A program made the translations under genes and the position numbers. Below the pieces are notes generated by a model. That model had not been told where the DNA came from and did no database searches. It saw only the letters and a list, made by a program, of their open reading frames with translations. A DNA stretch of 64,000 bases from a virus: the UHGV virus genome UHGV-0277313; one strand, 5' to 3'. Shown in pieces: positions 7,874 to 39,068 of the stretch; position 1 is the first letter of the stretch, and the number at the start of each line of letters is the position of its first letter.

Positions 7874-7943
7874 ATTTAAAACCTTATCAAACTTTTTGTC
7901 TTTATTTGTTATAAATTATAAAAAATTAAAAATCAAGACTTGT

Positions 7944-10355: not shown

Positions 10356-10425
10356 TAAATAATTCCTTAACTTACCTATTATTCTACATTATCATCTTTT
10401 TAAGAAAAATACAAGAAAGATTTAT

Positions 10426-10635: not shown

Positions 10636-10643
10636 ACAATAAA

Positions 10644-10671
10644 GGCGGGAATTGAACCCGCCTTTTCTTTT
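10644..10671. terminator. bidirectional rho-independent terminator between convergent genes
   Basis: GGCGGG-aattgaa-CCCGCC stem-loop, followed by TTTTCTTTT on the plus strand and by a U-rich tract (ttattgttta) on the minus strand. Confidence 0.7.
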
Positions 10672-11056
10672 AATCGTTACGCCCCAAATCAGAATCAATA
10701 CCCATTGCTTCAAGGGTTCGCATTTCTTCTTTTTTACGTAAATACTCTTCAGTCAACTTTTGTTGTGCCTGTTCCCATTCTTCACGAGCTGTTGCTGAAG
10801 TTTTCCATTCTTCCGCTGAACATGTATAAAAGGCTTGTGGATGTGGTTTATCAAGTGTGTATTCAACAGGGAATACCATTTGACCGCGTTCTTCATCCCA
10901 CATAGCGGCTGGCATTAAATTACACATACAGCCTGGAACTGACAAGATTTCGTCAACAGATTGAAAATCGGCTGTTTTCAATCCCATTTCAACATACGTC
11001 CCATCTTTTTGACGAATCTTTGATTTACCTTTTTCTTCTTTTAGTTCAATAGACAT
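10670..11056 (-). CDS. hypothetical protein (128 aa)
   Basis: Long ORF in the early operon context. No motif recognised. Confidence 0.45.
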   Translation of the reverse strand: MSIELKEEKGKSKIRQKDGTYVEMGLKTADFQSVDEILSVPGCMCNLMPAAMWDEERGQMVFPVEYTLDKPHPQAFYTCSAEEWKTSATAREEWEQAQQKLTEEYLRKKEEMRTLEAMGIDSDLGRND

Positions 11057-11080
11057 TTAGATCCACTTTCATTCTAGAGT

Positions 11081-12118
11081 TTAAGACAATTGTTCAATGA
11101 TTTTATCAACAGTAATTTCTTTCATTTCTTCATCAGAAGGAACGTCTTCCAACAAGGAACAATAATCAGAAAGATATTGTTTTAAATCACAATTTAATTC
11201 CTTGATATGTTTAGGTTCAGTTTTTAAAGCTAATTCATAACACAACGGAATCATTTTTAAAGGCAATCCTAAACAATAACTATTAATAAAATTTTCTATA
11301 CGTTTAACATGTTGAAATCCGTTAAATTCAAATTTTGTATATCTAGTTACTCCACTTTTAAGTTCCAATAAAGCAAACATTTTAGGTGACTTGCTAGGTA
11401 ATATATTAAACATGTTATTCTTTAATAAATCATGTTTACTCATGAACTTCAGCAGATAATTCATATACGATATTTTACCACCACGCGGAAGATTCTTTCC
11501 TTCAGTCCATAAACGATACCATATACGAATGCAAGGCAAATCTTGTTTACCTGTTTCTGAAATAACATCAGTTTTCCAATTTACACGTTTATTTGAATAT
11601 AATAAACCATCAATTAAATTGACTTGTTTTCTTTCAGACAACGCAGGGCCGTCATAATACAATTTAACCTTCCTAATAATTTCAGGCATTTCAGTTTTAT
11701 CAACTTGCTGATCCGCGCTTCTTTTTGCCGTATAACGAACACGAACAGGTTTGCGAATATCAATTAAAGGCAAACCTTCTCTTTCCAAAACTTTATTCGC
11801 TTCTGGAATTAAATCATAGGCTGTATAGCTTTTACCTTTATATAAATAATGTCTATATCCGTTTGGTGTTATCTTGTTATATAATAGATTTAAAACAAAT
11901 CTAAAAGTATCGCTCGTTTCCCAATCAAGAATTTCATCTTTTACACAAAAGAAATCCATATAAAAATTATACAATTGAGAATTATTACCACGCTGATATT
12001 CAATCTGCATAGGCTTTAAATCATACTTTACAGCTAAATCTGAAATAGGGATACCAAAGGCTAATTCCTTTAATAACTGATCCCTTAAATCATCAGTTAA
12101 TAGAGATGCTTTAGGCAT
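11081..12118 (-). CDS. hypothetical protein with N-terminal HTH-like segment (345 aa)
   Basis: N-terminal LRDQLLKELAFGIPISDLAVKYDLKPMQIEY looks like a helix-turn-helix. The remainder is unassigned. Confidence 0.45.
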   Translation of the reverse strand: MPKASLLTDDLRDQLLKELAFGIPISDLAVKYDLKPMQIEYQRGNNSQLYNFYMDFFCVKDEILDWETSDTFRFVLNLLYNKITPNGYRHYLYKGKSYTAYDLIPEANKVLEREGLPLIDIRKPVRVRYTAKRSADQQVDKTEMPEIIRKVKLYYDGPALSERKQVNLIDGLLYSNKRVNWKTDVISETGKQDLPCIRIWYRLWTEGKNLPRGGKISYMNYLLKFMSKHDLLKNNMFNILPSKSPKMFALLELKSGVTRYTKFEFNGFQHVKRIENFINSYCLGLPLKMIPLCYELALKTEPKHIKELNCDLKQYLSDYCSLLEDVPSDEEMKEITVDKIIEQLS

Positions 12119-12199
12119 GAAATAGAACTCATCATTAGATCAATTAGGATTTACAATTACCTAAAGAACAATTACGAATTCATCTTAAAGAAATTAATT

Positions 12200-13525
12200 C
12201 TACAATTTTGCCTTAAAGACGGCATCTTTTATTTTATTATAAATAGATTGAAATTGTTCAACAATCCCCATAGTATGATTTAATTGTTTGTTGCTTGTTC
12301 GACCAAACATAATATATTGAACGGCATCTTTAAAGGCACCTGAACGATAATGAATATTCTTGCACCACATCTTAAAATTCTGTGTAACAACATGAATTAC
12401 AGTTGAATATTTATAATTCGTACTCAAAGCAATTTTAGTAATGTTTTCATATAGATATCTTAAATCTGCAACAATAACATCATCTAAAACATCACCATCA
12501 AAACGAAAACCTAATAATTGGCAATTTTCTAGAAATTCATTGAATGTACGCATACAAGTAAAGTTATGTATATTTGGATGTGCATCAACGAAATTTTGAA
12601 TTGTCGGATCTAATCCTTCTGTAACAAATTCAACAGGAATCGTTCTTTTCTGGCCACCAATTAATAAATTTTTCTTCAGTCTTTTGTGCTCTTTTAAAGT
12701 ACGTTGCATTGCAACCTTTTCCAAACGTTTACTATGTTTTGTAAACAATTTGGCAATATTCACATCAGGAATCAATAATGAAGGAACATAATTCGCTTCA
12801 TCAAATGTTTCAGGCTCACCTTCACATGTTTTAATACCCAACCCTTTACGAGTACCATCACCATGTGTTTTACAAAAATAGTGATATGCCACTAAAACAT
12901 TGATAATATTACCCCATTCTAATGAACCAAAACCAAATTCCTTATCGTCAAACCAACCATTTTGTGTTTGAATTGCCATGATGTCATAATCAATTGCATC
13001 TAATCTGGCAAGAATAATAGCTAAAGCGCAATCATGTGTATGAAAATCTTGCACCTTAACTAGTTTTTTATGTACAAATTCTTTTAATTCCAAAAAGACA
13101 TGATTCACTAAATTTGGGTTTTTAGCTAATATATCAATTGCATCTTCAGGTTTATATCTATTCAATGCTTCAATATCATATTGAACAACATTACCTTTAA
13201 TTACCTTACTTTTTTGTACTTTATATGTGCCAAATTGATCCGCCAGTTTTTTAAATACACTTCTCTTATTTTTAATTTTTCCACCACGATCAATACACCA
13301 ATCCATATTGGCAATCTTCATCTTTTCTGGTGCATAATATTGTAAAAATGTCGGGGTGAACCAACCGTAATGACTAGACATCGGCAACCCTGATTTAACA
13401 TACTTCTTCGTGAACTGACGGCCACCTAATTTGTTCATAGTTGTTACTGCAATTTTAGACAAGTCTTTTTTCTTATAAAAGACTATTTCTTCACGTAACT
13501 TTTTTAGAACATTAATAGGTAACAA
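12200..13525 (-). CDS. hypothetical protein (441 aa); first gene of the leftward early operon
   Basis: Long ORF. The caller start is TTG at 13525 and the first in-frame ATG is at residue 30, so the start is uncertain. Contains an FHTHDCA histidine cluster. No confident family assignment. Confidence 0.45.
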   Translation of the reverse strand: MLPINVLKKLREEIVFYKKKDLSKIAVTTMNKLGGRQFTKKYVKSGLPMSSHYGWFTPTFLQYYAPEKMKIANMDWCIDRGGKIKNKRSVFKKLADQFGTYKVQKSKVIKGNVVQYDIEALNRYKPEDAIDILAKNPNLVNHVFLELKEFVHKKLVKVQDFHTHDCALAIILARLDAIDYDIMAIQTQNGWFDDKEFGFGSLEWGNIINVLVAYHYFCKTHGDGTRKGLGIKTCEGEPETFDEANYVPSLLIPDVNIAKLFTKHSKRLEKVAMQRTLKEHKRLKKNLLIGGQKRTIPVEFVTEGLDPTIQNFVDAHPNIHNFTCMRTFNEFLENCQLLGFRFDGDVLDDVIVADLRYLYENITKIALSTNYKYSTVIHVVTQNFKMWCKNIHYRSGAFKDAVQYIMFGRTSNKQLNHTMGIVEQFQSIYNKIKDAVFKAKL

Positions 13526-22349: not shown

Positions 22350-22736
22350 TTGAGAGAATTGCACATGGATAATAATTTTAATAACCCGTTTATTTTTGAC
22401 AATAGACCTGTACCGTGTGTATCTGTTAAGTTTAGGACTCTTTTAAACACAAAGGATACAAATCTGTATCAGTTGTGGAACTCTTTTATTTCAAAAGTTA
22501 TGCGTGAAGAAAAGAGCAGATATAAATATTCACAGGTTACTTTAATTCGTGAGTATTTACAAAGTCATCCAAATTTTGATATTGTCAAAGCAGCGGAATA
22601 TACATCATATACAATGCGTGAGTCTGTTGCTAGCATCAAGCCAATTTATGATTTAATTGACATTGATACACTAGCTTTTGTTTTGGCAATTTCTGGCTTT
22701 AATGTCAGAGAATTTGTTCGTAATGAAAATTGCTAA
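22350..22736 (+). CDS. hypothetical head-module protein (128 aa), possible prohead core component
   Basis: Positional only. Confidence 0.35.
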   Translation: MRELHMDNNFNNPFIFDNRPVPCVSVKFRTLLNTKDTNLYQLWNSFISKVMREEKSRYKYSQVTLIREYLQSHPNFDIVKAAEYTSYTMRESVASIKPIYDLIDIDTLAFVLAISGFNVREFVRNENC

Positions 22737-22759
22737 TTGATGATATAGGATTGTTTAAG

Positions 22760-24790
22760 ATGAAAAAGAAAACTCTTTTGATTGAACAATCAGACTTTTC
22801 CTTTCATGTAGAAAGAGAAAGCGAAGGGTTAAAAGAAGCTCTAGAGATCAAAGAAGACGGAAACGCGATTATTGTTAAACATGTTCCTTGCACGATTTTG
22901 GGCAAGAAAAATTTAAATGGTCGTATTTATCCTGCTGCAATGATGAAAAAGTCTTTAACAGATGCAAAACCACAGATCGATGCTCGTTCCTTGATTTGTC
23001 AGGCGCACGATCATCCTGAAGGTACATATGTTAAACCTATTGAAGCTTCACATCTAGTTGTTGATGCATATATCGAAGATGTTCCAAATGTTGGTCCGGT
23101 ATTGTTCAACGATTGGGAAATTTTACCAACAAGTCATGGTCGTGATTTAGCGGCCTTAATTGAAGCTGACGTTAGTTTAGGTACTTCAATTCGTGGTTTA
23201 GGTAATATGAGCGGTTCAGTTGTCGATGATTATGAATTTTTGGGAACTGATGTCGTAGGTAACCCTTCATCTGGTACGTTCACAGGAATGTTTAATCCAG
23301 CAAAAGCGACTAAAATGTCACGTAATGAAATGCGTGAAGCTTATGGTGATCCAGATGTTGCAGTAAATAAAAATATTGACATAATCATGCAAAATGCGTT
23401 AGCTGATAAAGAAGATGATGCTGCAGATGTTGGAAATATTAGTGCTCAAAAAGAATATAATGATATTCTTAAATTAGCTGAATATATTTATGTTGCTATT
23501 GTTAATAACAATAAATCTTTTGATAGTAAAGATGGTTTGTTAGATACAATGGCAGAAATTGTTTCTGAATATTTAGAGCTTAATAATTCTGAAGTTAAAG
23601 ATCAAGTCAATATGGCAATGTGTCAATTGCATGGTGCAAGTTGGTTTGAAGATTTAGACTCTTTAGTTAATCCTGTTAAAACAGATAAAGATAGTGAGTT
23701 CTCTAATCCAGAAAATGAAACGCCTGAAATGTCAGGCGAAGAACTAATTGATAATCAACAAACTCAAGTTAGTACGCTAGGAGAAAGTAAAATGGCTACA
23801 GTTGATCTTTCAGATTTACCTGAATTAAAACAGTTACAGAAAGGTGGCGACGCTACCGCTATTCATCAGGCACCTGAAGCTTTGGACCGTCCTGAAGAAG
23901 CTGTTACAGCTGAAGAAACACCAAATAAAGGTGCTTTGAAAGCTGGTCCAAATCCCGTCGTTGGAGATGCCCCTTCTGTTGAAGATATTAAAAAAGTTAA
24001 GTTCCAGGCTTATGATGCGAACAACATTCTTGCTCGTGAAAAAGTTAAAATGGAATCTCGTTGCACTGAATTAGCGCAGATGTTGGCGGAATCTCGTCGT
24101 AATCTGGCTGAAAAAGCTGAAAAGTATAATGAAGCTCAAAACGTTGTTAAGAGTCTTGTTGAACAATTATCAGTGTACAATACCGCGTTTGGTTCAAAAA
24201 CACCTGACGAAATTAAGGGTGAATATGAAAAACAGATCGCTGATCTGAAAGAATCCAGCGCTAAAGAATATGCTGTTCGTAAAGAAAAAGCGAATGCATA
24301 TGTTAAAGGTCTAATGACCGAATCTTCCGAAAAAGTCAAAAAGATTGCTGAAGACTTTAATGGTAAATTGTCTGTTAAAGAATCTGAAATCGCTGATTTG
24401 AATAAAAAGTTGGAAGAATCTGCGGCTGAAATGAAAGTTCTGAAAGCTGAATCTTATTCCGATAAACTTCGTATGGAAGAAGAATCCAAAAAAGCGCAGA
24501 AAGAAAAATATATGGAAGCTGCTAATAAAGCCGCTAAATTGAACGAAAAGCTGATCGAAGAATCTGCTAAAATGATTAAAGTCGCTTTAGAAGAATCCGC
24601 GAAAGCTCAAAAAGAACTGAAAAAAGAAATCGACATGCAAAAAGGCTTGTTCGAAAAAGTTCAGTCAATGTTCGATATTGCTTGCTCTATCAATGAAGCT
24701 TTGTCTGATGCCGTTATGAAAGAATGCATGGGCAAATGCGGAACTCGCCGTAAAGAATCAACTGCTCGCCGTTTGCGTGGTCACCGTTAA
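22760..24790 (+). CDS. 21: prohead core protease (T4 gp21-like) fused to a long acidic/coiled-coil scaffold domain (about 676 aa)
   Basis: N-terminal domain NLNGRIYPAAMMKKSL...QAHDHPEG...DVSLGTSIRGLGNMSG parallels the gp21 NKRLYPKRILEKAV...GELNHPPR...IPGVSSRGLGSLT (catalytic His and Ser). C-terminal 350 aa is K/E/A-rich heptad-like scaffold (KKAQKEKYMEAANKAAKLNEKLIEESAKMIK...). The caller start is TTG 22730; ATG at 22760 is more likely. Confidence 0.6.
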   Translation: MKKKTLLIEQSDFSFHVERESEGLKEALEIKEDGNAIIVKHVPCTILGKKNLNGRIYPAAMMKKSLTDAKPQIDARSLICQAHDHPEGTYVKPIEASHLVVDAYIEDVPNVGPVLFNDWEILPTSHGRDLAALIEADVSLGTSIRGLGNMSGSVVDDYEFLGTDVVGNPSSGTFTGMFNPAKATKMSRNEMREAYGDPDVAVNKNIDIIMQNALADKEDDAADVGNISAQKEYNDILKLAEYIYVAIVNNNKSFDSKDGLLDTMAEIVSEYLELNNSEVKDQVNMAMCQLHGASWFEDLDSLVNPVKTDKDSEFSNPENETPEMSGEELIDNQQTQVSTLGESKMATVDLSDLPELKQLQKGGDATAIHQAPEALDRPEEAVTAEETPNKGALKAGPNPVVGDAPSVEDIKKVKFQAYDANNILAREKVKMESRCTELAQMLAESRRNLAEKAEKYNEAQNVVKSLVEQLSVYNTAFGSKTPDEIKGEYEKQIADLKESSAKEYAVRKEKANAYVKGLMTESSEKVKKIAEDFNGKLSVKESEIADLNKKLEESAAEMKVLKAESYSDKLRMEEESKKAQKEKYMEAANKAAKLNEKLIEESAKMIKVALEESAKAQKELKKEIDMQKGLFEKVQSMFDIACSINEALSDAVMKECMGKCGTRRKESTARRLRGHR

Positions 24791-24810
24791 TTCTTCGGTC
24801 GTGATTATAA

Positions 24811-24845
24811 AAGAGGGGTGGTTAGTTCCGCCCCTCTTTTTGTTT
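24811..24845 (+). terminator. rho-independent terminator after the protease/scaffold gene
   Basis: AGAGGGGTGG-ttagtt-CCGCCCCTCT (one G.U pair) followed by TTTTTGTTTTATTT. Confidence 0.65.
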
Positions 24846-24872
24846 TATTTAGAATATTTATATAAATTTTTA

Positions 24873-24901
24873 TTGACATATTGTTTTATTTGTTGTAATA
24901 T
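24873..24901 (+). promoter_or_regulatory. sigma70-type promoter for the first homing-endonuclease-like gene
   Basis: TTGACA (24873-24878), 17 nt, TAATAT (24896-24901). Confidence 0.45.
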
Positions 24902-24933
24902 TATTTCATAAAATAAAGTTTAAGGTGTCTTTT

Positions 24934-26592
24934 ATGAAAAAAGCTATTTGTGAATTTTGCGGTAAAGAATATGAATATGATGAAAACAATATTCGTGTTC
25001 GTGAAGAAGGAAGAAAAGATTCGTATGATTCCTCGCGGTTTTGCTGTTTTCATTGTTTTTCAAAAGAACGTGTTAGAAAACAAAAAGAGACTCTATCTAA
25101 AAGATTGGGATACGAAGTAACCAGTACATTTCATCTTCCAGGAGTTCAAGAAAAAGCTCAAGCCACTAGTCTGAAAAGATACGGTACAAAATTCGGCGTG
25201 TGTTCAAAACAGTCCGTAGAAAAAAGAAGAAAAACGTGTAAAGAACGTTACGGATTTGAAATGCCGTTGCAGAATAAAGAAATTAAACAAAAGACGTATG
25301 ATTCAAATATAAAGAATCATAACGGTACGTATCACTTGCAAACCGAAGAAGTACGCGAAAAGTGTGCTGAAGGTCATCGTACTGATGAATATAGGGAAAA
25401 AGCAAGAAGATTGTTTGATGTTAAATCGAAACATACAGAGTTTGTTGAAAAGTATGGTGTAAGCAATCCTTTTCAATTAGAGTTTGTAAAAGAAAAAAGT
25501 AAAGAAACGTTGCTGAAAAAATACGGTGTTGAAAATATTTCTAAAGATGTTTGTACTTTAGAAAAACGTAGCAATACTCGTATGCTTAATGAAGCAATAA
25601 ATGTTGACAACTTAACAAAAGATTATTTGGAAGAAAATTTTGTTAAAGAAGAAAAGTTTCAATTAAAAGAAGCAGCGGATTATTTTAATGTAACATTGTT
25701 TGCAATGGATTCGTTTAAACAGCAGTTGGATATTGTTATTCCAAATGAAGAAAAGAAGAATAATACATTAGAAACAGAATTCTTTAATTTTATTTCTTCT
25801 TTAACTGATAAAGAGATTATAAGAAATACTAGAAATGTTATTTCGCCTTTGGAGTTGGATATTTATATTCCTACAATGAATCTAGCTTTTGAGTTCAATG
25901 GTGATTATTGGCATAGTGAAAATTTTGGCAGAAGTAAATTTTATCATATTGAGAAAACAAAACAATGTGAGAAAAAAGGAATTCGTTTAATTCATATTTG
26001 GGAACATGAATGGTTAAAAAATGATGAAAAGATCAAACTATTTATCAAAAGTCTTTTTGTTAAACGAGAAAAGATTCGAGCAAGTCAATGTGTGATCAAA
26101 GATCTATCGACAGAGGAGTTTGATAAATTTGCTGATAAATATCATTTGTTAGGTGCAACGTCAACTACAGCTGTTAAGTTTGGTTTGTTTTATGATGATA
26201 CTTTAGTTTCAGCAATAGGTTTGTCTTTTGATAGTAAACATGAATTCTGGAACTTGAAGCGTTACATTATTGGAGAATACCAAGTAATGGGTGGGTTTGA
26301 AAAATTATTTAAATATTTTATTGAAAAATACAATCCGGATAAAATTATTACTTTTGTTGAGTTGTCTAAATTTAAAGGTGATGTAAACTTTAAAAATGGT
26401 TTTGTATTAGATAAGGAATTAGCACCAGATTTCTTTTGGGTTATTAATGATGTCCGTGTAGATAAATGGACAGCATGGAGACAGTTTAAAGAAAGTGATG
26501 AAAATACCGCAGAGTATCAAAAAAAGATGAAAACTTTTGCATTAAAATGTTATGATGCAGGAAAAAGACGGTTAATTTGGAATAAAAGTTAA
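24934..26592 (+). CDS. free-standing homing-endonuclease-like protein, paralog 1: N-terminal zinc finger, tandem KxYGVxxP repeats, Vsr-like PD-(D/E)xK nuclease core, conserved C-terminal domain (553 aa)
   Basis: CEFCGK...CCFHCF zinc finger. Repeats LKRYGTKFGV / KERYGFEMPLQ / EKYGVSNPFQ / KKYGVENISK. Nuclease core ISPLELDIYIPTMNLAFEFNGDYWHSE matches the Vsr/DUF559 pattern (D-I-x-x-P...A-I-F/E-x-D/N-G-x-x-W-H). Start set at ATG 24934 (SD AAGGTG) rather than the caller's GTG at 24925. Confidence 0.6.
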   Translation: MKKAICEFCGKEYEYDENNIRVREEGRKDSYDSSRFCCFHCFSKERVRKQKETLSKRLGYEVTSTFHLPGVQEKAQATSLKRYGTKFGVCSKQSVEKRRKTCKERYGFEMPLQNKEIKQKTYDSNIKNHNGTYHLQTEEVREKCAEGHRTDEYREKARRLFDVKSKHTEFVEKYGVSNPFQLEFVKEKSKETLLKKYGVENISKDVCTLEKRSNTRMLNEAINVDNLTKDYLEENFVKEEKFQLKEAADYFNVTLFAMDSFKQQLDIVIPNEEKKNNTLETEFFNFISSLTDKEIIRNTRNVISPLELDIYIPTMNLAFEFNGDYWHSENFGRSKFYHIEKTKQCEKKGIRLIHIWEHEWLKNDEKIKLFIKSLFVKREKIRASQCVIKDLSTEEFDKFADKYHLLGATSTTAVKFGLFYDDTLVSAIGLSFDSKHEFWNLKRYIIGEYQVMGGFEKLFKYFIEKYNPDKIITFVELSKFKGDVNFKNGFVLDKELAPDFFWVINDVRVDKWTAWRQFKESDENTAEYQKKMKTFALKCYDAGKRRLIWNKS

Positions 26593-26623
26593 TTCATTAA
26601 TATTCTTGTAACTATTAATAAAT

Positions 26624-26660
26624 AAAGCGATTGACGTGATTGTTGGTCGCTTTATTTTTA
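26624..26660 (+). terminator. probable rho-independent terminator after HEG paralog 1
   Basis: AAAGCGA ... TCGCTTT stem with a 16-nt loop, followed by ATTTTTATTT. Confidence 0.4.
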
Positions 26661-26849
26661 TTTAAAATAACTTTTTTAACTTTTTTATATTTTTTGTACT
26701 TAATTACTTGTTCTTAAATTTCAGATAGTTAAGTCTATCATTCATTTTCCTATTCGCGGCGTTATTCGGTTAACATTTCTATCACTTTCTCTATACGTTT
26801 TTGTATAGGGTATTTAATCGTTTAATAAACCTTGATTAGGAGAATTATA

Positions 26850-28346
26850 ATGGGTTTTTTCCAAACAATTAACGAATCTGTTGCCGAAAAAGCGGCTCTA
26901 ACAGAAAGCCAGACAGTTGCTCGTGGTAAACGTGCTCTAGCTGAACATGCCGATTGGAAAGGCCGTTTCTCTAAATTGGAAGCGATGATGGAATCTGCCG
27001 ATGCTGCCGAAGCGAAAAAAGCTAGTGTTACAGCGCAGGTTATGTCAAATCTGTCCAATTTGATGGAACGCCAGAAAGAATATTACACTGAAGCGACATT
27101 CACTTCAATGTTAGGACCTATGGCTATGTTAACCCCGCGCGTTTTGGACATCGTTGGCGTGTTCTATCCAAACATGATTGCGCACCTGATTACAGACATC
27201 CAGGTTATGGATCGTTCAACAGGTGAAATCTTCGTTCTGCGCCCTCGCTATGGTTCTGACGCTGCTGGTGTTACAGCTGGTCAGGAAATGTGGGTTAATC
27301 AGACAGACGGAACCTATGCTTCTGAATATCGTTCAGCTTCTGCGAACGGTGGTGAAACAGACGGGACCACAACCGAATTTGCGGTTTCTGGTTTGACAGC
27401 TTCTGGTGGTCCTTTGCGTCGTGGTTCAGTTACCATTAAATTGGCTGGCATTGTTGTTGGTCGTGATGACGCTCATGGCATCATGGTTGGTAAAGATCGT
27501 GAAGGTCATGTTGTTTCCGGTACAGTTGATTATGACGCTGGTGACATTACAGTTGCTTTCTCTGCCGCTCCTTCAGCTGGCAAGAGCATTATGATCGACG
27601 CGTATGTTGATTCAGAAGAAGATCCTTCTTTGATCAATGAAGTCAACTTTGACATTCAGGCTGTTCCTGTTACAGCCCGTGCGCATCCTTTGCGTTACAC
27701 TGTTTCTGCCCAGGCGACATTGGTTGCTTCAGCGCACCTTGACGTTGATGTCAATGAAGTTCTGACAAACATTGCTGCTGGCGCGATCAAACAGGAACGT
27801 GACGTTGCTCTGGTCAACATGTTGGTTGCTGCTGCGACACATCTGGATACTCTCGACTTCGACCTGGCTGATGCTACAGTCAACTATCGTAACAAACGCG
27901 ATCGTTTCGCTGATATCGAACTGAAAGTCAACGAAGCCCAGACGAAGATTCAGACCGTTGCTGGCCGTGGTGGCGTTTCCTTCATTGTTGCTGGTGCGAA
28001 TGCTGCGAACTGCTTCCGTTTGGTTGAAGGTTTCGAAGCGGCTCCTGAAGCGACAAATGCGACAGTTGGTCCTTACAAGATGGGTGCTATTCGCAATGGT
28101 ACCGTTCCTGTTATCTGCGTTCCTATTTCCCGTACTCTGAAAGCTGACGATTTCGTTATCGGATTCCGTGGCTTCCAGGCTGGTGATAGCGCGACAGTGT
28201 TGGCGGAATGGATTCCTTTGTATTTCACCCCATTGTTCGAAGCCCCCAATTTACAGAATAAACGTGGTCTGATGAGTTTGTACGACATGTTGACAAACCG
28301 TCCTGAATACCTCGTTTCTGGTAAAGTTAAAGGCTATAACGCTTAA
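26850..28346 (+). CDS. 23: major capsid protein (T4 gp23-like), 498 aa
   Basis: GPMAMLTPRVLDIVGVFYPNMIAHLITDIQVMDRSTGEIFVLRPRYGSD parallels the T4 gp23 IGPAVMGMVRRAIPNLIAFDICGVQPMNSPTGQVFALRAVYGKD. GRGGVSFIVAGANAANCF parallels GRGEGNFIIASRNVVNVL. AGGAGA SD at 26838-26843. Markedly higher GC and optimal-codon usage than the surrounding DNA. Confidence 0.85.
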   Translation: MGFFQTINESVAEKAALTESQTVARGKRALAEHADWKGRFSKLEAMMESADAAEAKKASVTAQVMSNLSNLMERQKEYYTEATFTSMLGPMAMLTPRVLDIVGVFYPNMIAHLITDIQVMDRSTGEIFVLRPRYGSDAAGVTAGQEMWVNQTDGTYASEYRSASANGGETDGTTTEFAVSGLTASGGPLRRGSVTIKLAGIVVGRDDAHGIMVGKDREGHVVSGTVDYDAGDITVAFSAAPSAGKSIMIDAYVDSEEDPSLINEVNFDIQAVPVTARAHPLRYTVSAQATLVASAHLDVDVNEVLTNIAAGAIKQERDVALVNMLVAAATHLDTLDFDLADATVNYRNKRDRFADIELKVNEAQTKIQTVAGRGGVSFIVAGANAANCFRLVEGFEAAPEATNATVGPYKMGAIRNGTVPVICVPISRTLKADDFVIGFRGFQAGDSATVLAEWIPLYFTPLFEAPNLQNKRGLMSLYDMLTNRPEYLVSGKVKGYNA

Positions 28347-28365
28347 TTTAATTAAGTGTTATAAA

Positions 28366-28403
28366 GGAAGCGGAAGCAAGAAATTGCTTCCGCTTTTCTT
28401 TTG
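28366..28403 (+). terminator. strong rho-independent terminator after the major capsid gene
   Basis: GGAAGCGGAAGC-aagaaatt-GCTTCCGCTT followed by TTCTTTTGTTTG. Confidence 0.8.
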
Positions 28404-28406
28404 TTT

Positions 28407-28416
28407 GTGATACAAT
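28407..28416 (+). promoter_or_regulatory. candidate extended -10 promoter element (TGaTACAAT) for HEG paralog 2
   Basis: gTGATACAAT. The same TGATACAAT element precedes paralog 3 at 30297-30305. Confidence 0.3.
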
Positions 28417-28434
28417 TAATTTAGTTATTTTATT

Positions 28435-30264
28435 TTGAGGAAATTTATTTTGAATAGTAATTGGCAAGATGAGTTAAGAAAATTTTTCACTGAATATGAT
28501 TTTTCTGGATTTGTTTTGGAAATCAATAGTGGAAAAGAGTTTCAGTTTGGCAGTATCAGTCAAAATAAAAAGTTATTTTTAAATGTACAAAAAGAGTTGT
28601 CAAATTATTTTTCAAAACCTGGTGATTTAGGTGCATGTTTACTTTACCTAAAAGATCATTCAATAGATGAGTTGCTTAACAAATTAGAATGTCCAGTTTG
28701 TCATAAATTTAATGGTGTGTTTAGATTCAACAGACAACGTTGTGATGAGCATGTTTTTTGTTCAAGAGATTGTCGATATTCGTTAAAAGGTAAAACTTTA
28801 TTGATGAATCGATATAAAGAGAAAACAGGGTACGATAGTCCATATAGCAACCCAAAAGTTCAACAGAAACGAAAAGAGAACTTTTTGAGGAACTATGGTG
28901 TTGAATCGCCTATGCAAGTAGAAGAGTTTAAGAAAAGAAATATAGAAAGCAATAGAAACAATCACTGTGGTCTTCTAGCATGTCAGACTGAAGAAGTTAA
29001 GTTAAAAATAAAAGAAACGAATTTAAAGAATCACCATGGTGTGTTTAATTTGCAATTACCTGAAACAAAAGAAAAGTTAATTAAGCTGTCAAATGAACGA
29101 TATGGTGTAGATTTTCCTATAGCGAATAGTGACATCAGAAACAGACAGGAAAGGTTTTACGATGGTGTTGGTTTAGCATCATATATAATTAGAAAGAAAG
29201 CAGAAGAAACGTTTGGTGGGCCTTTAAACGGGTCTAATCCAATTATTTTTGAAAAGATGAAACAAACGGTAGAAAACAAAACAGGAAAGAGTTTTGAAGA
29301 AGCTGTTACTGAAAACATGCAACGTGGTTTAAAAGAAAAGTTTGGTGATGAAATAGGTTTTGCCAATGAAAAGATTGCAGCTAAAATTCAGAAACAGGTT
29401 GTTGAAAAATTTAACGTTCCTTATTTTTGTTTAACTGATAAATGTAGACAGGCAAATAAAAAGACAATTTCAAAAAGAAATGTGATGTTTGCCGAAAAGT
29501 TGAGAAAGTTAGGTTATGAAGTTGGTTTAGATTCGGTAAAGCTTGAGACTTTTTCATACGATATCTGTTTGGAAAAAGAAAAGATTTTGATAGAAATAGA
29601 TCCATCTTTTACACATAATTCGACAAGAAACCCGTTTGGTTCTGTACGGTTACCAGATTATCATTTAAGGAAATCTGAAGTTGCAAGAAGGTTTGGTTAT
29701 AGGTGCATTCACATTTTTGATTGGGATGATGAAAAAAAAGTTTTAGGTTTATTTGAAAAGAGCGAAAGAATCTATGCTAGAAAGTGTGAAGTTAGGGTAG
29801 TTGATTTTGAAAGTTGTTCAGAATTCTTAAATCGCTATAGTTTAACGAATTGTTTAACAAAAGAAGATGTTTGTTTATGTTTGTTTTATAATGAACTATT
29901 AGTTCAAATTATGGTTTTTGGAAAACCTAGAAAAGATAAAGACATTCAATATGAATTGTTGCATTTTTGTAGCAGAAAAGGTTTTAGAATCATTGGTGGT
30001 GTAAGCAGGTTATTCAGCTATTTCAAAAATAAATTTAAACCTGAATCATTAGTTTCATATTGTGATTTTTCAAAATTTGAAGGAGCTGTTTATGAAATTT
30101 TAGGGTTTCATAAAGTTGACGAATTGATACCAGTTTGTCATCTATCCAAAAAGAAACAACAATTCATTATTGAAGATAGTTGTGAAAAGATAGATTTGAT
30201 AGAAAAAGGTTTTGTAGAAGTTTTTGATTGTGGCTATAAAAAATATTTGTTTTGTGTAAAATAA
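28435..30264 (+). CDS. free-standing homing-endonuclease-like protein, paralog 2 (about 605 aa): zinc finger, YG-repeats, PD-(D/E)xK-like core, conserved C-terminal domain
   Basis: CPVCHKF...CSRDCRY zinc finger. Repeats LRNYGVESPMQVEEFKKR / NERYGVDFPIANSDIR. Core YDICLEKEKILIEIDPSFTHN. C-terminal IYARKCEVRVVDFESCSEFLNRYSL...GKPRKDKDIQYELLHFCS...GGVSRLFSYF is shared with paralogs 1 and 3. No in-frame ATG near the 5' end. Probable start is TTG at 28435, or TTG at 28450, which has GAGGAAA SD 6 nt upstream. Confidence 0.55.
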   Translation: MRKFILNSNWQDELRKFFTEYDFSGFVLEINSGKEFQFGSISQNKKLFLNVQKELSNYFSKPGDLGACLLYLKDHSIDELLNKLECPVCHKFNGVFRFNRQRCDEHVFCSRDCRYSLKGKTLLMNRYKEKTGYDSPYSNPKVQQKRKENFLRNYGVESPMQVEEFKKRNIESNRNNHCGLLACQTEEVKLKIKETNLKNHHGVFNLQLPETKEKLIKLSNERYGVDFPIANSDIRNRQERFYDGVGLASYIIRKKAEETFGGPLNGSNPIIFEKMKQTVENKTGKSFEEAVTENMQRGLKEKFGDEIGFANEKIAAKIQKQVVEKFNVPYFCLTDKCRQANKKTISKRNVMFAEKLRKLGYEVGLDSVKLETFSYDICLEKEKILIEIDPSFTHNSTRNPFGSVRLPDYHLRKSEVARRFGYRCIHIFDWDDEKKVLGLFEKSERIYARKCEVRVVDFESCSEFLNRYSLTNCLTKEDVCLCLFYNELLVQIMVFGKPRKDKDIQYELLHFCSRKGFRIIGGVSRLFSYFKNKFKPESLVSYCDFSKFEGAVYEILGFHKVDELIPVCHLSKKKQQFIIEDSCEKIDLIEKGFVEVFDCGYKKYLFCVK

Positions 30265-30277
30265 ATTGAAAATTTTG

Positions 30278-30305
30278 TTGACATTTATTGTGTTTATGAT
30301 ACAAT
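30278..30305 (+). promoter_or_regulatory. sigma70-type promoter (with TG-extended -10) for HEG paralog 3
   Basis: TTGACA (30278-30283), 16 nt, TACAAT (30300-30305), with TG at 30297-30298. Confidence 0.45.
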
Positions 30306-30335
30306 ATGATTATATATTGTAAGAGGTTTTTTGTA

Positions 30336-32153
30336 ATGTATAGTATTAAAGATATTGATGCTTCTCGTTTAAGAAGGGATTATTCTAAATATCCTTTAAT
30401 TGATGATGAGTATATTACAAAAGAAGAGTTTGAATATCTGTATTTAGAAGTGAATTTGTCTTTTGAAGAGATTGATATTTATTTGCAATCAAGACCTGGT
30501 ACTGCATTAAATAAAAACAGAAGAAAACCGAATGCAAAGAATTCTAATAAGTTTGGTTTAAAAAAAACAAGTGCATTAATTGCTGCTAAAATGAGAAATG
30601 CAACGTTTGACAGATATGGTGTAACAACGCCTTTTGCTTTAAATGAAGTAAAAGAAAAGGTTGTACTGTTGAATAAAGAAAGAATGCGGGATAAAGAAAA
30701 ACGCGATCAGATTGTTAAGAAAATAAAAGAAACGACTTTAAAACGTTTTGGTGTTGATAATGCAATGAAATGTAAAGAGGTGTATGAGAAGGGTGCCAAA
30801 AAGAGAGTTGAGTTATATGGAACTTGCAACAATAATGAAAAAATAAAAAAGACAAAATTTGAACGTTATGGGGATAGTGGGTATTTAAATAAAGAGAAAG
30901 CAAAAGAAACATTAAAGAATAATTTTGGTGTAGAGTCGCCTTTTGAATCGGTTGAAATTAAAAATAAAGCGATGGAATCTGTTAAAGAAAAATATGGTGT
31001 TGATAATGTTTTTAAGCTGAAAGAGTTTCAGAAAAAAGCAAAAGATGTAATTTTTGAAAGATATGGCGTTGATAAATTTTCTTTAACAGGTGTTCAGCAC
31101 CCTGAAAACTATAATAAAGATTTTATTGAAAAGAATTTTATAGAAGGTGGGTATTTTAAAATAGAAGAAGCATTGAGTTATTTTAATGTAAACAGATCGT
31201 CAATGGATTCTTTTAAGCGCAGAAATAATATCATTATTCCAAATAAACATGAAAAACATCAAATGCAAAATCAGATTTATGAATTTATTAAATCGATATA
31301 TGCAGGTAATGTTATTTGTGATACAAGAAAGGTTATTTCACCTTTAGAGTTGGACATTTATATTCCTGATTTAAGAATAGCAATAGAGTTTGATGGTTTG
31401 ATGTTTCATTCAGTATCGACTATTGAGGAAGATAGATCGTTGCGAGGTGAAATTATGATGAAAGACTATCATAAAGTCAAAACTGACATGTGTGAAGAAT
31501 TAGGAATTAAACTTTTTCACATTTTTGAGAATGAATGGTTAGATTTAAATAAGCAAGCTATTTGGAAGTCAGTCATTAGAAATGCAATTGTTCAAGATAA
31601 TTATATTTATGCAAGAAATTGTGTTGTAAAAAATGTAGATAAAACATTAAAGAAAAAGTTTTTGGAAGAAAATCATTTACAGGGTGATTGCATTTCAGAA
31701 ATTAATTTAGGTTTGTTTTATAATGATGAATTAGTGTCATTGATGTCTTTTGGCAAACCAAGATTTTCTAAAAAATATGATTATGAATTGTTGCGATTTT
31801 GTACTAAATTAAATTTGCAAGTTCGTTTTGCCGCGTCAAAATTGTTAAGTCATTTTAAAAAATTGATGAATACAAATACAAATTTAGTGTCGTATGCAAA
31901 CAGACGTTGGTCGAATGGACATTTGTATGAATCATTGTGTTTTGAAAAGCAGAATACAAAAGTTGAGCCTTCATATTTCTATTTTCGAAATAGTGAGAAA
32001 ATTCTATTTAGTCGAATTAAGTTTCAAAAGGGAAAGTTGAAAAATCTTTTAGAAAGTTTTGATGAAAGTTTATCTGAATCTGAAAATATGTTCAACAATG
32101 GTTTTAGAAAGATTTATGATTCAGGTTCATTAACATATTGCTTGAAACTATAG
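30336..32153 (+). CDS. free-standing homing-endonuclease-like protein, paralog 3 (605 aa): at least 7 tandem RYGVxxPF repeats, Vsr-like nuclease core, conserved C-terminal domain
   Basis: Repeats FDRYGVTTPFALNEVKEK, LKRFGVDNAMKCKEVYEK, FERYGDSGYLNKEKAKET, NNFGVESPFESVEIKNK, KEKYGVDNVFKLKEFQKK and FERYGVDKFSLTGV. Core ISPLELDIYIPDLRIAIEFDGLMFHS. C-terminal IYARNCVVKNVDKTLKKKFLEENHLQG...GLFYNDELVSLMSFGKPRFSKKYDYELLRFCT...ASKLLSHF. ATG 30336 with AAGAGG SD. Confidence 0.6.
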   Translation: MYSIKDIDASRLRRDYSKYPLIDDEYITKEEFEYLYLEVNLSFEEIDIYLQSRPGTALNKNRRKPNAKNSNKFGLKKTSALIAAKMRNATFDRYGVTTPFALNEVKEKVVLLNKERMRDKEKRDQIVKKIKETTLKRFGVDNAMKCKEVYEKGAKKRVELYGTCNNNEKIKKTKFERYGDSGYLNKEKAKETLKNNFGVESPFESVEIKNKAMESVKEKYGVDNVFKLKEFQKKAKDVIFERYGVDKFSLTGVQHPENYNKDFIEKNFIEGGYFKIEEALSYFNVNRSSMDSFKRRNNIIIPNKHEKHQMQNQIYEFIKSIYAGNVICDTRKVISPLELDIYIPDLRIAIEFDGLMFHSVSTIEEDRSLRGEIMMKDYHKVKTDMCEELGIKLFHIFENEWLDLNKQAIWKSVIRNAIVQDNYIYARNCVVKNVDKTLKKKFLEENHLQGDCISEINLGLFYNDELVSLMSFGKPRFSKKYDYELLRFCTKLNLQVRFAASKLLSHFKKLMNTNTNLVSYANRRWSNGHLYESLCFEKQNTKVEPSYFYFRNSEKILFSRIKFQKGKLKNLLESFDESLSESENMFNNGFRKIYDSGSLTYCLKL

Positions 32154-32194
32154 TAAAACTGTGTTCTATATTTAAAACAATAAAGGGTGAAGCG

Positions 32195-32713
32195 ATGCAA
32201 ACTTTTCGTGAATGTTTTTTAAATTATATGGAAGAAGCTTTTGAAGCTGATTTAAGTTTATCTGATTTAAAGATTGATAATATAGATAAAGTTGAAAAGT
32301 TTTTGAAAGACAAATTAGAGTTAGAAGGTCTTGAAAGATTTGAGGATGTTTTTCAAATATCTAATTCTTTAGACGAAGGTTTGCTTGACTCTTTAAGCAA
32401 TTATTTTAAAAATAATAAAAATGCTTTATTACTTGCAGCAGCATTGTCTATTTTAGGTTGGTCAATGTCTGATGTTGTAAAGAATTTTGTTGTTTTGTCT
32501 GTTACAAATTCGGCTTGTCGTTCATATGATTATAGTTTTAAATCGTGTCCTTATAGAAATGTAAAAGATTTGGCAAAAGAAGTCGATGAAAATAAAGATG
32601 CTGTTTTAAAAACTTTTGAGAAGATTGAAAATAAAGAAGACATTAATAAAGAAGATGTTGAACAATTTTTATCATGGCAGCAATTTATTGAAAAAGATTC
32701 AGTTTCTTCATAA
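32195..32713 (+). CDS. hypothetical protein (about 172 aa)
   Basis: The caller start is TTG 32138. An in-frame ATG at 32195 has AAGGGTGA SD. No motif recognised. Confidence 0.4.
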   Translation: MQTFRECFLNYMEEAFEADLSLSDLKIDNIDKVEKFLKDKLELEGLERFEDVFQISNSLDEGLLDSLSNYFKNNKNALLLAAALSILGWSMSDVVKNFVVLSVTNSACRSYDYSFKSCPYRNVKDLAKEVDENKDAVLKTFEKIENKEDINKEDVEQFLSWQQFIEKDSVSS

Positions 32714-33038
32714 AAATATTTAGGAAAATTGAAATCGTAAATAAAATTAACATTGAAGTTGTTGCAAAAAAAGCTTCGTGGCAATACAAAAGGATCCAAA
32801 TTGTAGAAGCTAAAAACGAAGTTTCAAACATTCGATCAAAAAAATTGATAGCAAAGTTTTTCTTATCTAGATAAACATTGAAAGCAACTAGTGTAAACAT
32901 AGCGATGAATGATTGAAAAGCTTCACGTAAAAAAGTTTTGGAATAAACTAAAGAAAACAATATTGCACCAATAAAGTAAATGAGCAAAATTGTGAAAATG
33001 ACATTAGCTATAAATTGTTCAAATTTGGTTTGTTTCAT
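32685..33038 (-). CDS. small multi-pass membrane protein (117 aa) on the opposite strand within the late block
   Basis: Hydrophobic segments FIANVIFTILLIYFIGAILFSLVY, FIAMFTLVAFNVYL and FLASTIWILLYCH...MLILFTISIFLNIFM. Candidate holin or superinfection-exclusion-type protein, or an AT-rich artefact. Confidence 0.35.
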   Translation of the reverse strand: MKQTKFEQFIANVIFTILLIYFIGAILFSLVYSKTFLREAFQSFIAMFTLVAFNVYLDKKNFAINFFDRMFETSFLASTIWILLYCHEAFFATTSMLILFTISIFLNIFMKKLNLFQ

Positions 33039-34663: not shown

Positions 34664-36634
34664 ATGAATCAACAGAATAAAGATTTTTATAATGTTTTAA
34701 ATGATCATAATGTTTTAGTTGAAGAAGACGAAGGTTATGAAATTCAACAAGCTGAAGCTTTACAGAAATCTTTGGAAAAAGCTAAAACTTTAGAAGATTT
34801 GTTTAAAATTAAGTCATTCGGCAATTATGTTGGTTCATTGCATGTTATGTCTAGTGATGGTACTGATACAGAAGCATCGAGTTCAAATTATAAACCTATC
34901 ATTGATTTTAAGACTTTGACAGGTTTTTCATATGAAGATAAGTTAAGAGTTGTAACATTTTGTTGCGCTGTAATAACTTCTGTTTTTGACGCGTTGAAAC
35001 AAAAGAAGAAGCTGGACGACGAATCACTTGCACAAAAAATACCTGTTGGTAAAAAAATTGCTGTTAGTTTAGGAAAAGATTCTGATTTAAAAAACAATGT
35101 TTTTGGTTATGATATTGTAGCAGATAAATTAAATGAGATTAACGAAAATAAAAGTATGTTGATCAATTTAAATGTAAACAGTGATTATTTATATAAAATG
35201 TTTGCATCTGGTATTTTATCATTGGAAAATATTGGTGAATTCATTGTTAAGTTTAAATCAGATACGTGTGAATTTGTTTGTCAATCTTCAAAACTTTCTG
35301 AAATTTTGAATATCCTTAATTTATTGCAAAGAGAAGCAAGCAATGTAACTTCAATAAATTCTTTAAAAGATTCTTTTGGAGTTTTATTGAATAATATTGT
35401 TTTTACGTTTTGTGGTTTGACTGTTAATGAGATTTTCAGTGATACAAATGAACGTGAATATGAATTATTTTCCAGCTTAAGTGAAGAAGATAGAATTCAG
35501 TTAAAGCGTACTGTTGTAGAGGAATTAGTAGATAGTTTTTCTAAAAAAATACATTTAGATCCGTATAAGATTAATTTTAACAGTAGTTTTAATGTTGATG
35601 GAAAAGTTTCGTTTATAACGGATTTTAATTTCAAATCTGTAAATGTAAAAAAAGCTAGTGAAGATACAGCTTCAAAAAATATTAAAACTAAAGGTAAGTC
35701 AGATAATATTTTATATTATGTGGCGCAGCAATTATCAACAGCAGATTTTTCAAAATTTGATGAAAAATTTGAAATTCAGAATTCAGGTTTTGTTAAAAAG
35801 TTTAATGCTGATTGGAAATTGGTGCTTAAACCTGTATTTGATGAAGAAAATATTAAAAAAACAAAAGATGCACTTGATGATTTGAAGTTTGAAATTGACG
35901 AAAGATTATCAAAGTTAAAATTTTTGTATGATGCCAATATTCCAATGAAAAAGGTCGGTCAGTCAGAAATTGTAGATGATGACAAGATTTCAAATAATTT
36001 AATGGATGTAATGGAAGACTTGACAGAAAAAGATGAAATAAAAAGCACTCTATCTGGTTCTGGTTATTTCTTTAGAGTTACTTTAAAAAAGTTTGTTGTG
36101 TTAAAGAAAAATTTTAATGATAGCAAAAAACAGATACAGGCTTTGTATGATGTGAAACTAAAAAAAGCTAAAGACGATTACCCTGAACTTGGTAAAGATG
36201 GTAAGATTTCACAATCAAAATTGAAGTCCTATCAAAGTAATGTTTCGGAGTTGGAAGATAAAAAAGAAAGTAGTTTATCAGATTTGAAAACGAAATACAT
36301 GGAGTCTAGAGCTAAATTAGTTGCAAATGCAGAAGAGGCTGTCAGAGCAATAAATACTTTAGCATCATCTATTTCATCAAATCAAAATAAGTTGAGAAGA
36401 ACTGAAGATTTTATGAACAGTTTAGGTAAAGATAGTTATTCTAAAGATGTCTGTGAGGCATGGAAAGAAAGCTTTTTATCATTGTTGTCGGAAGAGGATA
36501 ACGTTGTTCAAAAAAGAATTCCTGAACCAAAACGTGAGTCAGATAAATCGTATAGGTTAAATGGAAAACTAAGCTTTAACTTTAATAATAAAGATTATTT
36601 TTATACAATGAATTTGTTGATTGTTGTACGGTGA
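34664..36634 (+). CDS. hypothetical K/D/E-rich structural-module protein (656 aa)
   Basis: Long ORF starting 3 nt after the upstream stop. Largely helical and charged. Confidence 0.45.
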   Translation: MNQQNKDFYNVLNDHNVLVEEDEGYEIQQAEALQKSLEKAKTLEDLFKIKSFGNYVGSLHVMSSDGTDTEASSSNYKPIIDFKTLTGFSYEDKLRVVTFCCAVITSVFDALKQKKKLDDESLAQKIPVGKKIAVSLGKDSDLKNNVFGYDIVADKLNEINENKSMLINLNVNSDYLYKMFASGILSLENIGEFIVKFKSDTCEFVCQSSKLSEILNILNLLQREASNVTSINSLKDSFGVLLNNIVFTFCGLTVNEIFSDTNEREYELFSSLSEEDRIQLKRTVVEELVDSFSKKIHLDPYKINFNSSFNVDGKVSFITDFNFKSVNVKKASEDTASKNIKTKGKSDNILYYVAQQLSTADFSKFDEKFEIQNSGFVKKFNADWKLVLKPVFDEENIKKTKDALDDLKFEIDERLSKLKFLYDANIPMKKVGQSEIVDDDKISNNLMDVMEDLTEKDEIKSTLSGSGYFFRVTLKKFVVLKKNFNDSKKQIQALYDVKLKKAKDDYPELGKDGKISQSKLKSYQSNVSELEDKKESSLSDLKTKYMESRAKLVANAEEAVRAINTLASSISSNQNKLRRTEDFMNSLGKDSYSKDVCEAWKESFLSLLSEEDNVVQKRIPEPKRESDKSYRLNGKLSFNFNNKDYFYTMNLLIVVR

Positions 36635-37161: not shown

Positions 37162-37188
37162 ACTATATTTTCTATTCGGAGAATTTCT

Positions 37189-39068
<1,880 letters not shown>

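Follow-up and report, generated by a model that had tools for sequence, protein, structure and literature searches.

Probable Hef-like homing endonuclease genes on both sides of a gp23-family capsid gene in virus genome UHGV-0277313

In a 64,000-nucleotide stretch of virus genome UHGV-0277313, referred to below as the window, three long plus-strand open reading frames (ORFs), designated P1, P2 and P3, were found to flank a capsid gene of the gp23 family, all within 7.2 kb. They are likely to be free-standing Hef-like homing endonuclease genes, separately acquired and seated in intergenic slots flanking the capsid gene. This reading is supported by family membership, domain folds, catalytic residues, purifying selection, presence and absence among relatives, rearrangement, and bounded patches of exchange. 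The initial annotation, prepared from the sequence alone, had described three large ORFs with a shared modular plan around the capsid gene and had read them as Vsr/PD-(D/E)xK-type homing endonucleases. The ORFs lie as it had placed them, with the Pfam Gp23 match between P1 and P2, and the nuclease reading was supported by PHROG 3339, a profile match to I-Bth0305I, MTES_1575 and DUF559. The genes are as follows (aa, amino acids; RBS, ribosome-binding site):

24934-26592, plus strand: P1, probable Hef-like homing endonuclease gene, 552 aa; ATG at 24934, RBS AAGGTG
26850-28346, plus strand: major capsid protein gene, gp23 family, 498 aa; Pfam Gp23 E 4.5e-29
28450-30264, plus strand: P2, Hef-like gene, 604 aa from TTG 28450; ORF open from 28435
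30336-32153, plus strand: P3, canonical Hef-like gene, 605 aa; ATG at 30336 behind an AAGAGG RBS

The start of P2 had been placed at 28435. The frame is indeed open there, but in relatives the codon at that position is a non-start, and the most likely start by sequence comparison is TTG 28450, which is conserved in relatives and has a Shine-Dalgarno sequence (GAGGAA) at 28437.

All three proteins were matched nearly full length by PHROG 3339, annotated 'homing endonuclease' (P3 E 2e-120, P1 E 1.9e-84, P2 E 5.2e-55), most of the 536 positions of the profile being covered. When P3 was compared with phage genomes by tblastn, matches were obtained at 1072 places in 413 records, so that several family copies per genome are typical, and at least 2839 homologues were present in a metagenome protein database. 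The best matches of P3 were genes of Campylobacter phages CP220, CPt10 and IBB_35, annotated 'Hef' or 'homing endonuclease' (about 40% identity, aa 169-601), and the next best were 'Hef-like homing endonuclease' genes in T4-type and RaK2-type jumbo phages. According to passages of two papers citing the original work (PMC2988022, PMC3296691), Hef-like genes have been a recognised class of free-standing homing endonuclease genes since 2005; Hef-type enzymes were assigned to the Vsr-like EDxHD family in 2011 by Taylor et al. (PMC3239194).

By their sequence, P1, P2 and P3 are placed as new members of the Hef-like family, and the architecture itself was already known. It had been proposed to be distinct from the GIY-YIG, HNH and LAGLIDADG endonucleases of phages, which is correct in that no Pfam domain of these three types was detected in P1, P2 or P3 at E up to 0.1, but it is not new, falling into the Hef-like/EDxHD class. 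The 'HNH endonuclease' label of PHROG 559 is an annotation, not a motif, and the NCBIfam search yielded chance-level matches only.

Mutual identity among P1, P2 and P3 was only 24-31%, and each was nearer to genes of unrelated phages than to its neighbours in the window. Because of this low identity, the three genes are regarded as separate acquisitions, and a recent tandem duplication was rejected.

Compared with the Hef and Hef-like genes of T4-related, ViI-like and Campylobacter CP220/CPt10 phages, as described in passages of PMC2988022, PMC3296691 and PMC2993671, the window genes share PHROG 3339 over the full length and about 35-40% identity across the repeats, helix-turn-helix (HTH), nuclease and Mom-like region, and are likewise free-standing, multicopy per genome and adjoining conserved structural genes. 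They are larger, with longer repeat arrays and an extra zinc ribbon or helical N-terminus, matches to Hef-like genes of T4-type phages beginning only at about aa 140-170 of P3, and two of the three copies (P1 and P2) differ from those genes in their degenerate Mom-like sites. In the same passages, homing is given as demonstrated only for phage U5 Hef. With the T4 seg and mob genes and the homing endonuclease gene ('HEG') islands found on both sides of essential phage genes (PMC2988022, PMC10448857), they have in common the intergenic niche beside capsid or other conserved genes, the possession of their own promoters and the position at boundaries of recombination patches, those enzymes being GIY-YIG, HNH and T5orf172 nucleases with other DNA-binding modules.

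The domain order was found to be a zinc ribbon (P1 and P2), an array of DUF7487 repeats, an HTH, a Vsr-like/EDxHD nuclease and a Mom-like GNAT domain. Domain limits are given below in residues; those of P2 are counted from 28435, not from TTG 28450.

P1: zinc ribbon 6-41; DUF7487 repeats about 47-205; HTH about 226-272; nuclease about 286-375; Mom-like domain about 376-552
P2: zinc ribbon 86-113; degenerate DUF7487 repeats about 118-326; nuclease about 351-442; Mom-like domain about 443-609
P3: helical module 29-59; 7-8 DUF7487 repeats 82-250; HTH about 258-303; nuclease about 313-416; Mom-like GNAT domain about 417-605

The zinc finger proposed for the first two ORFs was recovered as a CxxC...CxxxC pattern at the N-terminus of P1 and P2, in agreement with the family consensus CxxCG...CxxxC; zinc-ribbon Pfam models match some family members. 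In its place, the AF2 model of P3 has a short helical module at the N-terminus. The repeats with the motif K/R-YGV-x-x-P-F/M are present and correspond to DUF7487 (Pfam PF24308), the gathering cut-off of 27 bits being passed by P1 (63.3 bits, E 4e-17), P2 (56.5 bits, E 5e-15) and P3 (68.6 bits, E 9e-19), but the period is about 23 aa (spacings 17-23) and not the 26-30 aa first suggested. Each unit is made up of a long, basic helix and, after it, a turn with the sequence (K/R)-YGV-x-x-P-F, and an AF2 model (pLDDT 88) has about one helix per unit. At least seven repeats had been counted in P3, where seven clear units and one degenerate unit were found; of the roughly seven units of the P1 array four are clear, and the longer, degenerate array of P2 has two clear ones.

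In the nuclease domain, residues D340, E351, H358, H379 and K382 (P3 numbering) were invariant in 63 sequences, P1 and P2 included. The motif ELDIYIP...EF(N/D)G..H put forward in the initial annotation fits P1 and P3 but not P2, which reads SYDICLEKEKILIEIDPSFTH; P2 keeps the equivalents of D340, E351, D353, H358, H379 and K382 and is without the nearly invariant E338 and E398. The PD-(D/E)xK family model MTES_1575 matched P1 (E 0.0026), P3 and some relatives, with E from 2e-5 to 0.003 over all these matches, and DUF559 matched one relative. The AF2 model of the region comprises a helix, three strands, a helix and a strand.

The sole PDB sequence match of the family profile was I-Bth0305I (3r3p), a weak one with E 0.084, in which D340, D353 (D or N) and H358 align with D196, N208 and H213, and the final D of EDxHD stands opposite the invariant H379. 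By this weak alignment, the catalytic residues come in the same order as in I-Bth0305I and the EDxHD family (PDB 3R3P; PMC3239194), among which Taylor et al. count the phage Hef-type enzymes, and N-terminal DNA-binding modules and an HTH likewise precede the nuclease. I-Bth0305I differs in being intron-encoded, with NUMOD-type modules and no Mom-like domain, whereas P1, P2 and P3 are free-standing, carry DUF7487 repeats and have an invariant H at the last-D position.

The further conserved C-terminal domain that had been noticed does exist; it is the best conserved part of the protein across the family and was identified, on the basis of structural modelling, as a Mom-like GNAT domain with a predicted Mom-type fold. 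The consensus motif proposed for it fits P2 and P3, P1 being strongly diverged there. The AF2 model of P3 aa 300-605, covering the nuclease and Mom-like domains, reached pLDDT 94 and pTM 0.91, and according to it the Mom-like domain would pack rigidly on the nuclease. The top Foldseek match of the P3 model was Mu Mom 8BV8 (E 1.1e-5) over 197 columns against a target of 202 residues; since the alignment spans nearly the whole Mom chain, it probably takes in the region after the core.

Profile-profile comparison with the Mom family alignment gave a probability of 84% (E 7.8e-6); hhalign against the single Mu Mom sequence was uninformative (probability 0.6%), significance being reached only with the Mom family profile. 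The Pfam Mom model (PF25680, cut-off 27.1 bits) matched the isolated C-terminal domain of P3 below cut-off (18.9 bits, E 0.0013) and homologues P0026 and P0014 with 27.7 and 26.8 bits, respectively; 13 of the 63 members of the family had E below 0.01, and none of the window proteins was matched by this model at full length.

Mu Mom transfers glycine from Gly-tRNAGly to adenine N6 and has a GNAT fold (PDB 8BV8; PMC13219725, PMC7261163). Its important residues are H58, Y59, R111, S124, D149, R151 and Y159, R111 being specific to Mom and not general to GNATs. In the profile alignment these correspond to H447, L448, R487, S501, N522, R524 and Y531 of P3, so that five of the seven are kept and D is replaced by N. 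Conservation among the 63 family members was high at H447 (62), R487 (61), S501 (54), R524 (58) and Y531 (55), and position 522 was N in 55 and D in 7. Relative to Mu Mom, P3 and most of the family have equivalents of H58, E108, R111, S124, R151 and Y159; identity is only about 14-18%, Y59 is replaced by L and D149 by N in most members, the W48 dimer contact is lost, and the domain is fused to a nuclease here and stands alone in Mom.

P1 and P2 depart from this pattern. P1 has E, E, S and N at the positions of S501, N522, R524 and Y531, the Mom-type S, R151 and Y being lost, and P2 has S, H and S at those of H447, R487 and R524, the Mom-type H, R111 and R151 being lost. At 48 conserved positions of the Mom-like domain, 3 deviations were counted in P3, 28 in P1 and 24 in P2 (median 1, maximum 10 in the other 60), and at 20 conserved positions of the nuclease the numbers were 0, 5 and 11, respectively (median 0, maximum 3). 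Positions were taken as conserved at 90% or more among the other 60 homologues, a set made up of the best matches of P3 and biased towards it. The nearest relatives of P1 itself mostly retain the Mom-type residues, and shorter relatives have DUF7487 and the nuclease without a Mom domain. The Mom-like domain of P3 may be enzymatically active; those of P1 and P2 probably have a structural or DNA-contact role only.

Selection was estimated against the approximately 87% identical relative L001. The dN/dS values were 0.145 for P1, 0.20 for P2 and 0.118 for P3, with 0.10 for the protease gene and 0.069 for the capsid gene, and all individual domains stayed below 0.2 except the Mom-like domain of P2 (0.31). 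Values of 0.12-0.20 imply that P1, P2 and P3 encode working proteins, with P2 relaxing.

Fixed synteny in all relatives, which had been named as an observation that would speak against homing, was not seen; order, strand and presence vary. Within the clade of about 85-99% DNA identity, P1, P2 and P3 are all in place, except for a disruption of P2 in L053. In L019 (capsid 82%) the order is capsid-P3-P2, and in L017 (capsid 91%) it is P1-capsid-P3 followed by a P2 remnant comprising aa 3-273 only. The P2 orthologue of L016 is on the minus strand, and the P1 slot of that genome (4969-6435) holds a gene for the thymidylate synthase ThyX (Pfam Thy1, E 5.8e-32) and an ORF of 184 aa, from which it follows that the intergenic site accepts differing cargo. 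In L004, L009, L010, L030, L038 and L041, six distant relatives for which long flanks are available, the surroundings of the capsid gene are free of Hef-like genes; other distant relatives carry Hef-like fragments.

The closest relative, L053, has flanks about 99% identical to the window, and in it aa 82-344 of P2 are replaced by a 1.7-kb insert (5396-7038). The insert contains two minus-strand ORFs, one of 437 aa (Pfam SSO2105_N, TnpB-like by eye) and one of 85 aa, which carries an HTH_17 motif together with a YCIVSS-like motif of the serine-recombinase type; judged by these, it may be an IS607-type element.

Patches of exchange were evident between otherwise nearly identical genomes. The window and L049 share at least 98.5% identity in nearly all 200-bp bins, the main exception (82-94%) running from about 29400, where the P2 nuclease domain begins, to about 32930, and taking in P3 and two small genes that follow it; smaller dips (92.5-97.5%) surround the P1 and P2 promoters. 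Relatives L011 and L015 are 100% identical over 21.8 kb except at about 25356-26525 (window coordinates), where identity drops to 59-70%. This patch is the 3' two-thirds of P1, and sparse differences run on into the capsid gene. An L017-type lineage was rejected as the source of the L015 P1 allele (50-64% identity). It is well established that homing genes cluster around capsid genes and lie at the borders of genetic exchange, and the patches at P1 and P2-P3 fit this pattern.

The capsid genes of L011 and L015 differ at 10 nucleotides, all synonymous, and 7 of these fall in codons 96-99, where CCG CGC GTT TTG (CCGCGCGTTTTG) is changed to CCA AGA GTG CTC (CCAAGAGTGCTC) in L015, including two first-position changes. 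All six genomes with the standard P1 allele keep CCGCGCGTTTTG, even though the capsid gene carries as many as 117 differences elsewhere; the codons are recoded only in L015, in which the 3' part of P1 is swapped, and the encoded peptide does not vary among the relatives compared. In IMG/VR, an exact-match scan for the recoded sequence revealed no other genome. The site is:

27135-27146, plus strand: candidate recognition/immunity site, capsid codons 96-99, 545 bp downstream of P1

It may be a site of recognition or immunity that goes with the P1 allele, or else a short stretch that was co-converted; both readings of the cluster tie the exchange to P1.

Putative signals for separate transcription of the genes are listed here:

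24809-24840, plus strand: intrinsic-terminator-like hairpin, 13-bp stem with 7 GC pairs and a T run, 3' of the prohead protease/scaffold gene
24873-24901, plus strand: sigma-70-like promoter of P1, TTGACA-17-TAATAT, 10/12 match
26620-26657, plus strand: terminator-like hairpin 3' of P1, 17-bp stem, T run
28366-28397, plus strand: terminator-like hairpin 3' of the capsid gene, 14-bp stem; kept in L019, where P3 directly follows
28406-28416, plus strand: extended -10 TGTGATACAAT upstream of P2, without a convincing -35
30278-30305, plus strand: sigma-70-like promoter of P3, TTGACA-16-TGATACAAT (-10 TACAAT, with TG), 11/12 match

The claim that each gene has its own sigma70-like promoter is borne out by good sites for P1 and P3, but P2 has only the extended -10. 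An element shared by two of the genes had also been reported, and TGATACAAT does occur upstream of P2 (28408) and P3 (30297); with 5 copies in the window against 1.7 expected, and at least 5 in 4 of 100 shuffles, its count alone is weak. Promoter-like sites were not enriched over the whole region (35 against 30.5 expected). The P1 promoter is conserved in L011 and TTGAC(A/T)-spacer-TAnAAT is kept 5' of the P3 orthologues in L011, L049, L016 and L017, both promoters being retained despite divergence of the surrounding sequence. The hairpin at 24809-24840 would close the upstream transcription unit before P1.

As homing endonuclease genes, P1, P2 and P3 would each be transcribed from its own host-type promoter. 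The zinc ribbon or helical module, the 23-aa DUF7487 array and the HTH would together read a long DNA site, and the Vsr-like (EDxHD-type) PD-(D/E)xK domain would cut a related genome without that allele, probably in or beside the capsid gene. Repair by recombination with the co-infecting donor as template would then give the cut genome a copy of the endonuclease gene, together with adjoining capsid sequence. Each of the three genes appears to represent a different stage in the life cycle of a homing gene, P3 being intact, P1 diverged yet constrained and swapping alleles, and P2 decaying.

Several points weigh against this interpretation. Cleavage, target location and homing are inferred for P1, P2 and P3, and the tie to phage U5 Hef comes from database annotation and from passages of citing papers. 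The I-Bth0305I sequence match is weak, with the invariant H379 in place of the last D of EDxHD, and the fold search with the nuclease-plus-Mom model had only GNATs among the matches listed, which leaves the nuclease fold unconfirmed by structure search. Retention in place throughout the clade of about 85-99% identity, together with neighbour-like purifying selection, would also fit domesticated genes, and the cluster in codons 96-99 could have arisen by co-conversion of a short stretch from a diverged donor instead of marking a target site. The classical homing model also leaves the role of the highly conserved Mom-like domain unexplained.

That domain is the starting point of a reading in which the proteins are single-chain weapons similar to restriction-modification (R-M) systems: the Mom-like domain would modify the phage's own adenines and the nuclease degrade unmodified host or competitor DNA, so that the genes would be conflict or exclusion factors and not homing elements. 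We consider this unlikely, and it is not fully exclusive of homing. It has been published for jumbo phages by Iyer et al. 2021 (PMC7824862), who described fusions of Mom and a restriction endonuclease (REase) in group 2 jumbo phages, for example five in PA5oct. Their fusions, likened to ours by description, combine the same Mom-family GNAT and REase fold in several copies per genome, and were taken as restriction with self-protection, not as homing genes. The equivalents of Mom H58, the Mom-specific R111, S124, R151 and Y159 in 54-62 of 63 sequences are in its favour, as is the pTM of 0.91 of the two-domain model, which suggests one functional unit. P1 and P2, however, keep the core nuclease residues and have lost the Mom-type catalytic ones, which would be self-toxic under strict R-M; Mom D149 is N in most of the family, and some relatives have DUF7487 and the nuclease without the Mom domain. 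Long, variable DNA-binding arrays suggest rare long sites instead of frequent short ones, several divergent copies per genome with a patchy distribution are typical of selfish homing genes, and PADLOC defence and R-M models gave no match at E up to 0.01.

There is also a small chance that the three genes are domesticated descendants of homing endonucleases serving the phage as regulators of capsid expression or as helpers in recombination or packaging, the nuclease being either kept for a host function or inactive. Their retention across the close clade (L053 P2 excepted) and dN/dS values of 0.12-0.20, similar to those of neighbours, would suit such a role, for which CapR offers a parallel, homing-gene DNA-binding domains having been co-opted elsewhere as capsid-gene repressors. 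It is opposed by the invariance of D340, E351, H358, H379 and K382 in all three proteins, by the dispensability of P2, which is interrupted in L053, truncated in L017 and inverted in L016, and by ThyX in the P1 slot of L016, the absence of the genes from distant relatives and allele swaps in otherwise identical genomes. Very improbable, finally, is a set of immobile tandem paralogues produced by local duplication, for which the homing-gene label would be a habit of annotation: three same-strand genes with the same domain plan within 7.2 kb might give that impression, but their identity of only 24-31%, the closer kinship of each to genes in unrelated phages and the order and orientation that vary between relatives are at odds with it.

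Within the Hef-like homing endonuclease reading, the Mom-like domain could provide site-directed self-protection, general DNA modification or DNA contact only. Tentatively, and with rather low confidence, P3-type Hef enzymes may be bifunctional, an active, probably aminoacyl-tRNA-dependent Mom-like domain modifying adenine in the endonuclease's own recognition site, to which it would be led by the long DNA-reading part that also guides the nuclease. The carrier genome would in this way be marked and protected epigenetically, and naive genomes would be cut. No tRNA genes were found in the window, so that a partner tRNA encoded nearby is unsupported. If the bifunctional reading were true, it would describe a homing endonuclease that carries its own antidote and forms a bridge between homing genes and R-M systems, and P1 and P2 would be later stages in which modification had been replaced by recoding of the target, as at capsid codons 96-99.

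Both the Mom-nuclease fusion in jumbo phages and the link between Hef and EDxHD were published previously. One family appears to have been treated in two literatures with differing functional readings, as 'Hef-like homing endonuclease' and as 'Mom-REase restriction/protection fusion', and no paper joining them was found in the searchable literature. Taken alone, the annotation of these three selfish genes of an uncultured jumbo phage is routine. With a canonical copy next to two Mom-degenerate ones, the locus offers a natural test of the role of the Mom-like domain; the metagenomic relatives capture exchange linked to the endonucleases around an essential gene with unusual clarity, and the candidate target or immunity site of 12 bp within the capsid gene is directly testable in vitro.

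Judged from close relatives, the source of the window appears to be an uncultured jumbo phage of about 313 kb. The gene set of those relatives includes a T4-type portal, gp23, baseplate gp25 and a GroES/GroEL pair. By megablast, positions 24000-33000 had no match among GenBank phages, hence no close cultured phage at the DNA level, and the nearest capsid proteins among GenBank phages are 42% identical. The capsid gene likely starts at ATG 26850 (RBS AGGAGA), gene calls in relatives also giving 498 aa. Upstream of P1 lies the prohead protease/scaffold gene 22730-24790 (PHROG 207 E 1.4e-18 in the N-terminal region, Pfam Peptidase_S77 weak). Its C-terminal part is long, K/E-rich and apparently coiled-coil, and the gene may be a protease-scaffold fusion.

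A distant relative, L008 (same contig as L039), has its capsid gene in three pieces at 5956-11750. The first piece, residues 7-112, is a separate ORF ending in a stop and is followed by two Hef-like genes, one per strand; the remainder consists of residues 110-155 and residues 155-504, with a group I intron (Rfam RF00028, 68.4 bits, E 3.9e-16, 10186-10683) between them. The first break could be a split gene or an unrecognised intron. The ORF directly 3' of this capsid gene (11886-13373) combines a partial Mom-like domain (P3 aa 419-538) with a SegE-type GIY-YIG domain (Pfam E 2.8e-7) and appears to be a chimera in which domains of two homing endonuclease families have been shuffled together.

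The GC content of the window capsid gene is 48%, and that at third codon positions (GC3) is 0.40, against about 30% GC in the genome and a GC3 of 0.16-0.24 in neighbours; relatives trend alike. Expression-linked codon bias is the probable cause, the size of the effect being striking. The GroES/GroEL pair (Cpn10, Cpn60) is placed at about 37184-39063, directly ahead of baseplate gp25, a position taken from the gene calls of L049, whose identity to the window in that part is 99% or more. The 656-aa gene at 34664-36634 is hypervariable, with 99.8% identity to L049 and 44% to L001; in L001 its flanks are 88-96% identical and DNA similarity collapses at about 34990-36380.

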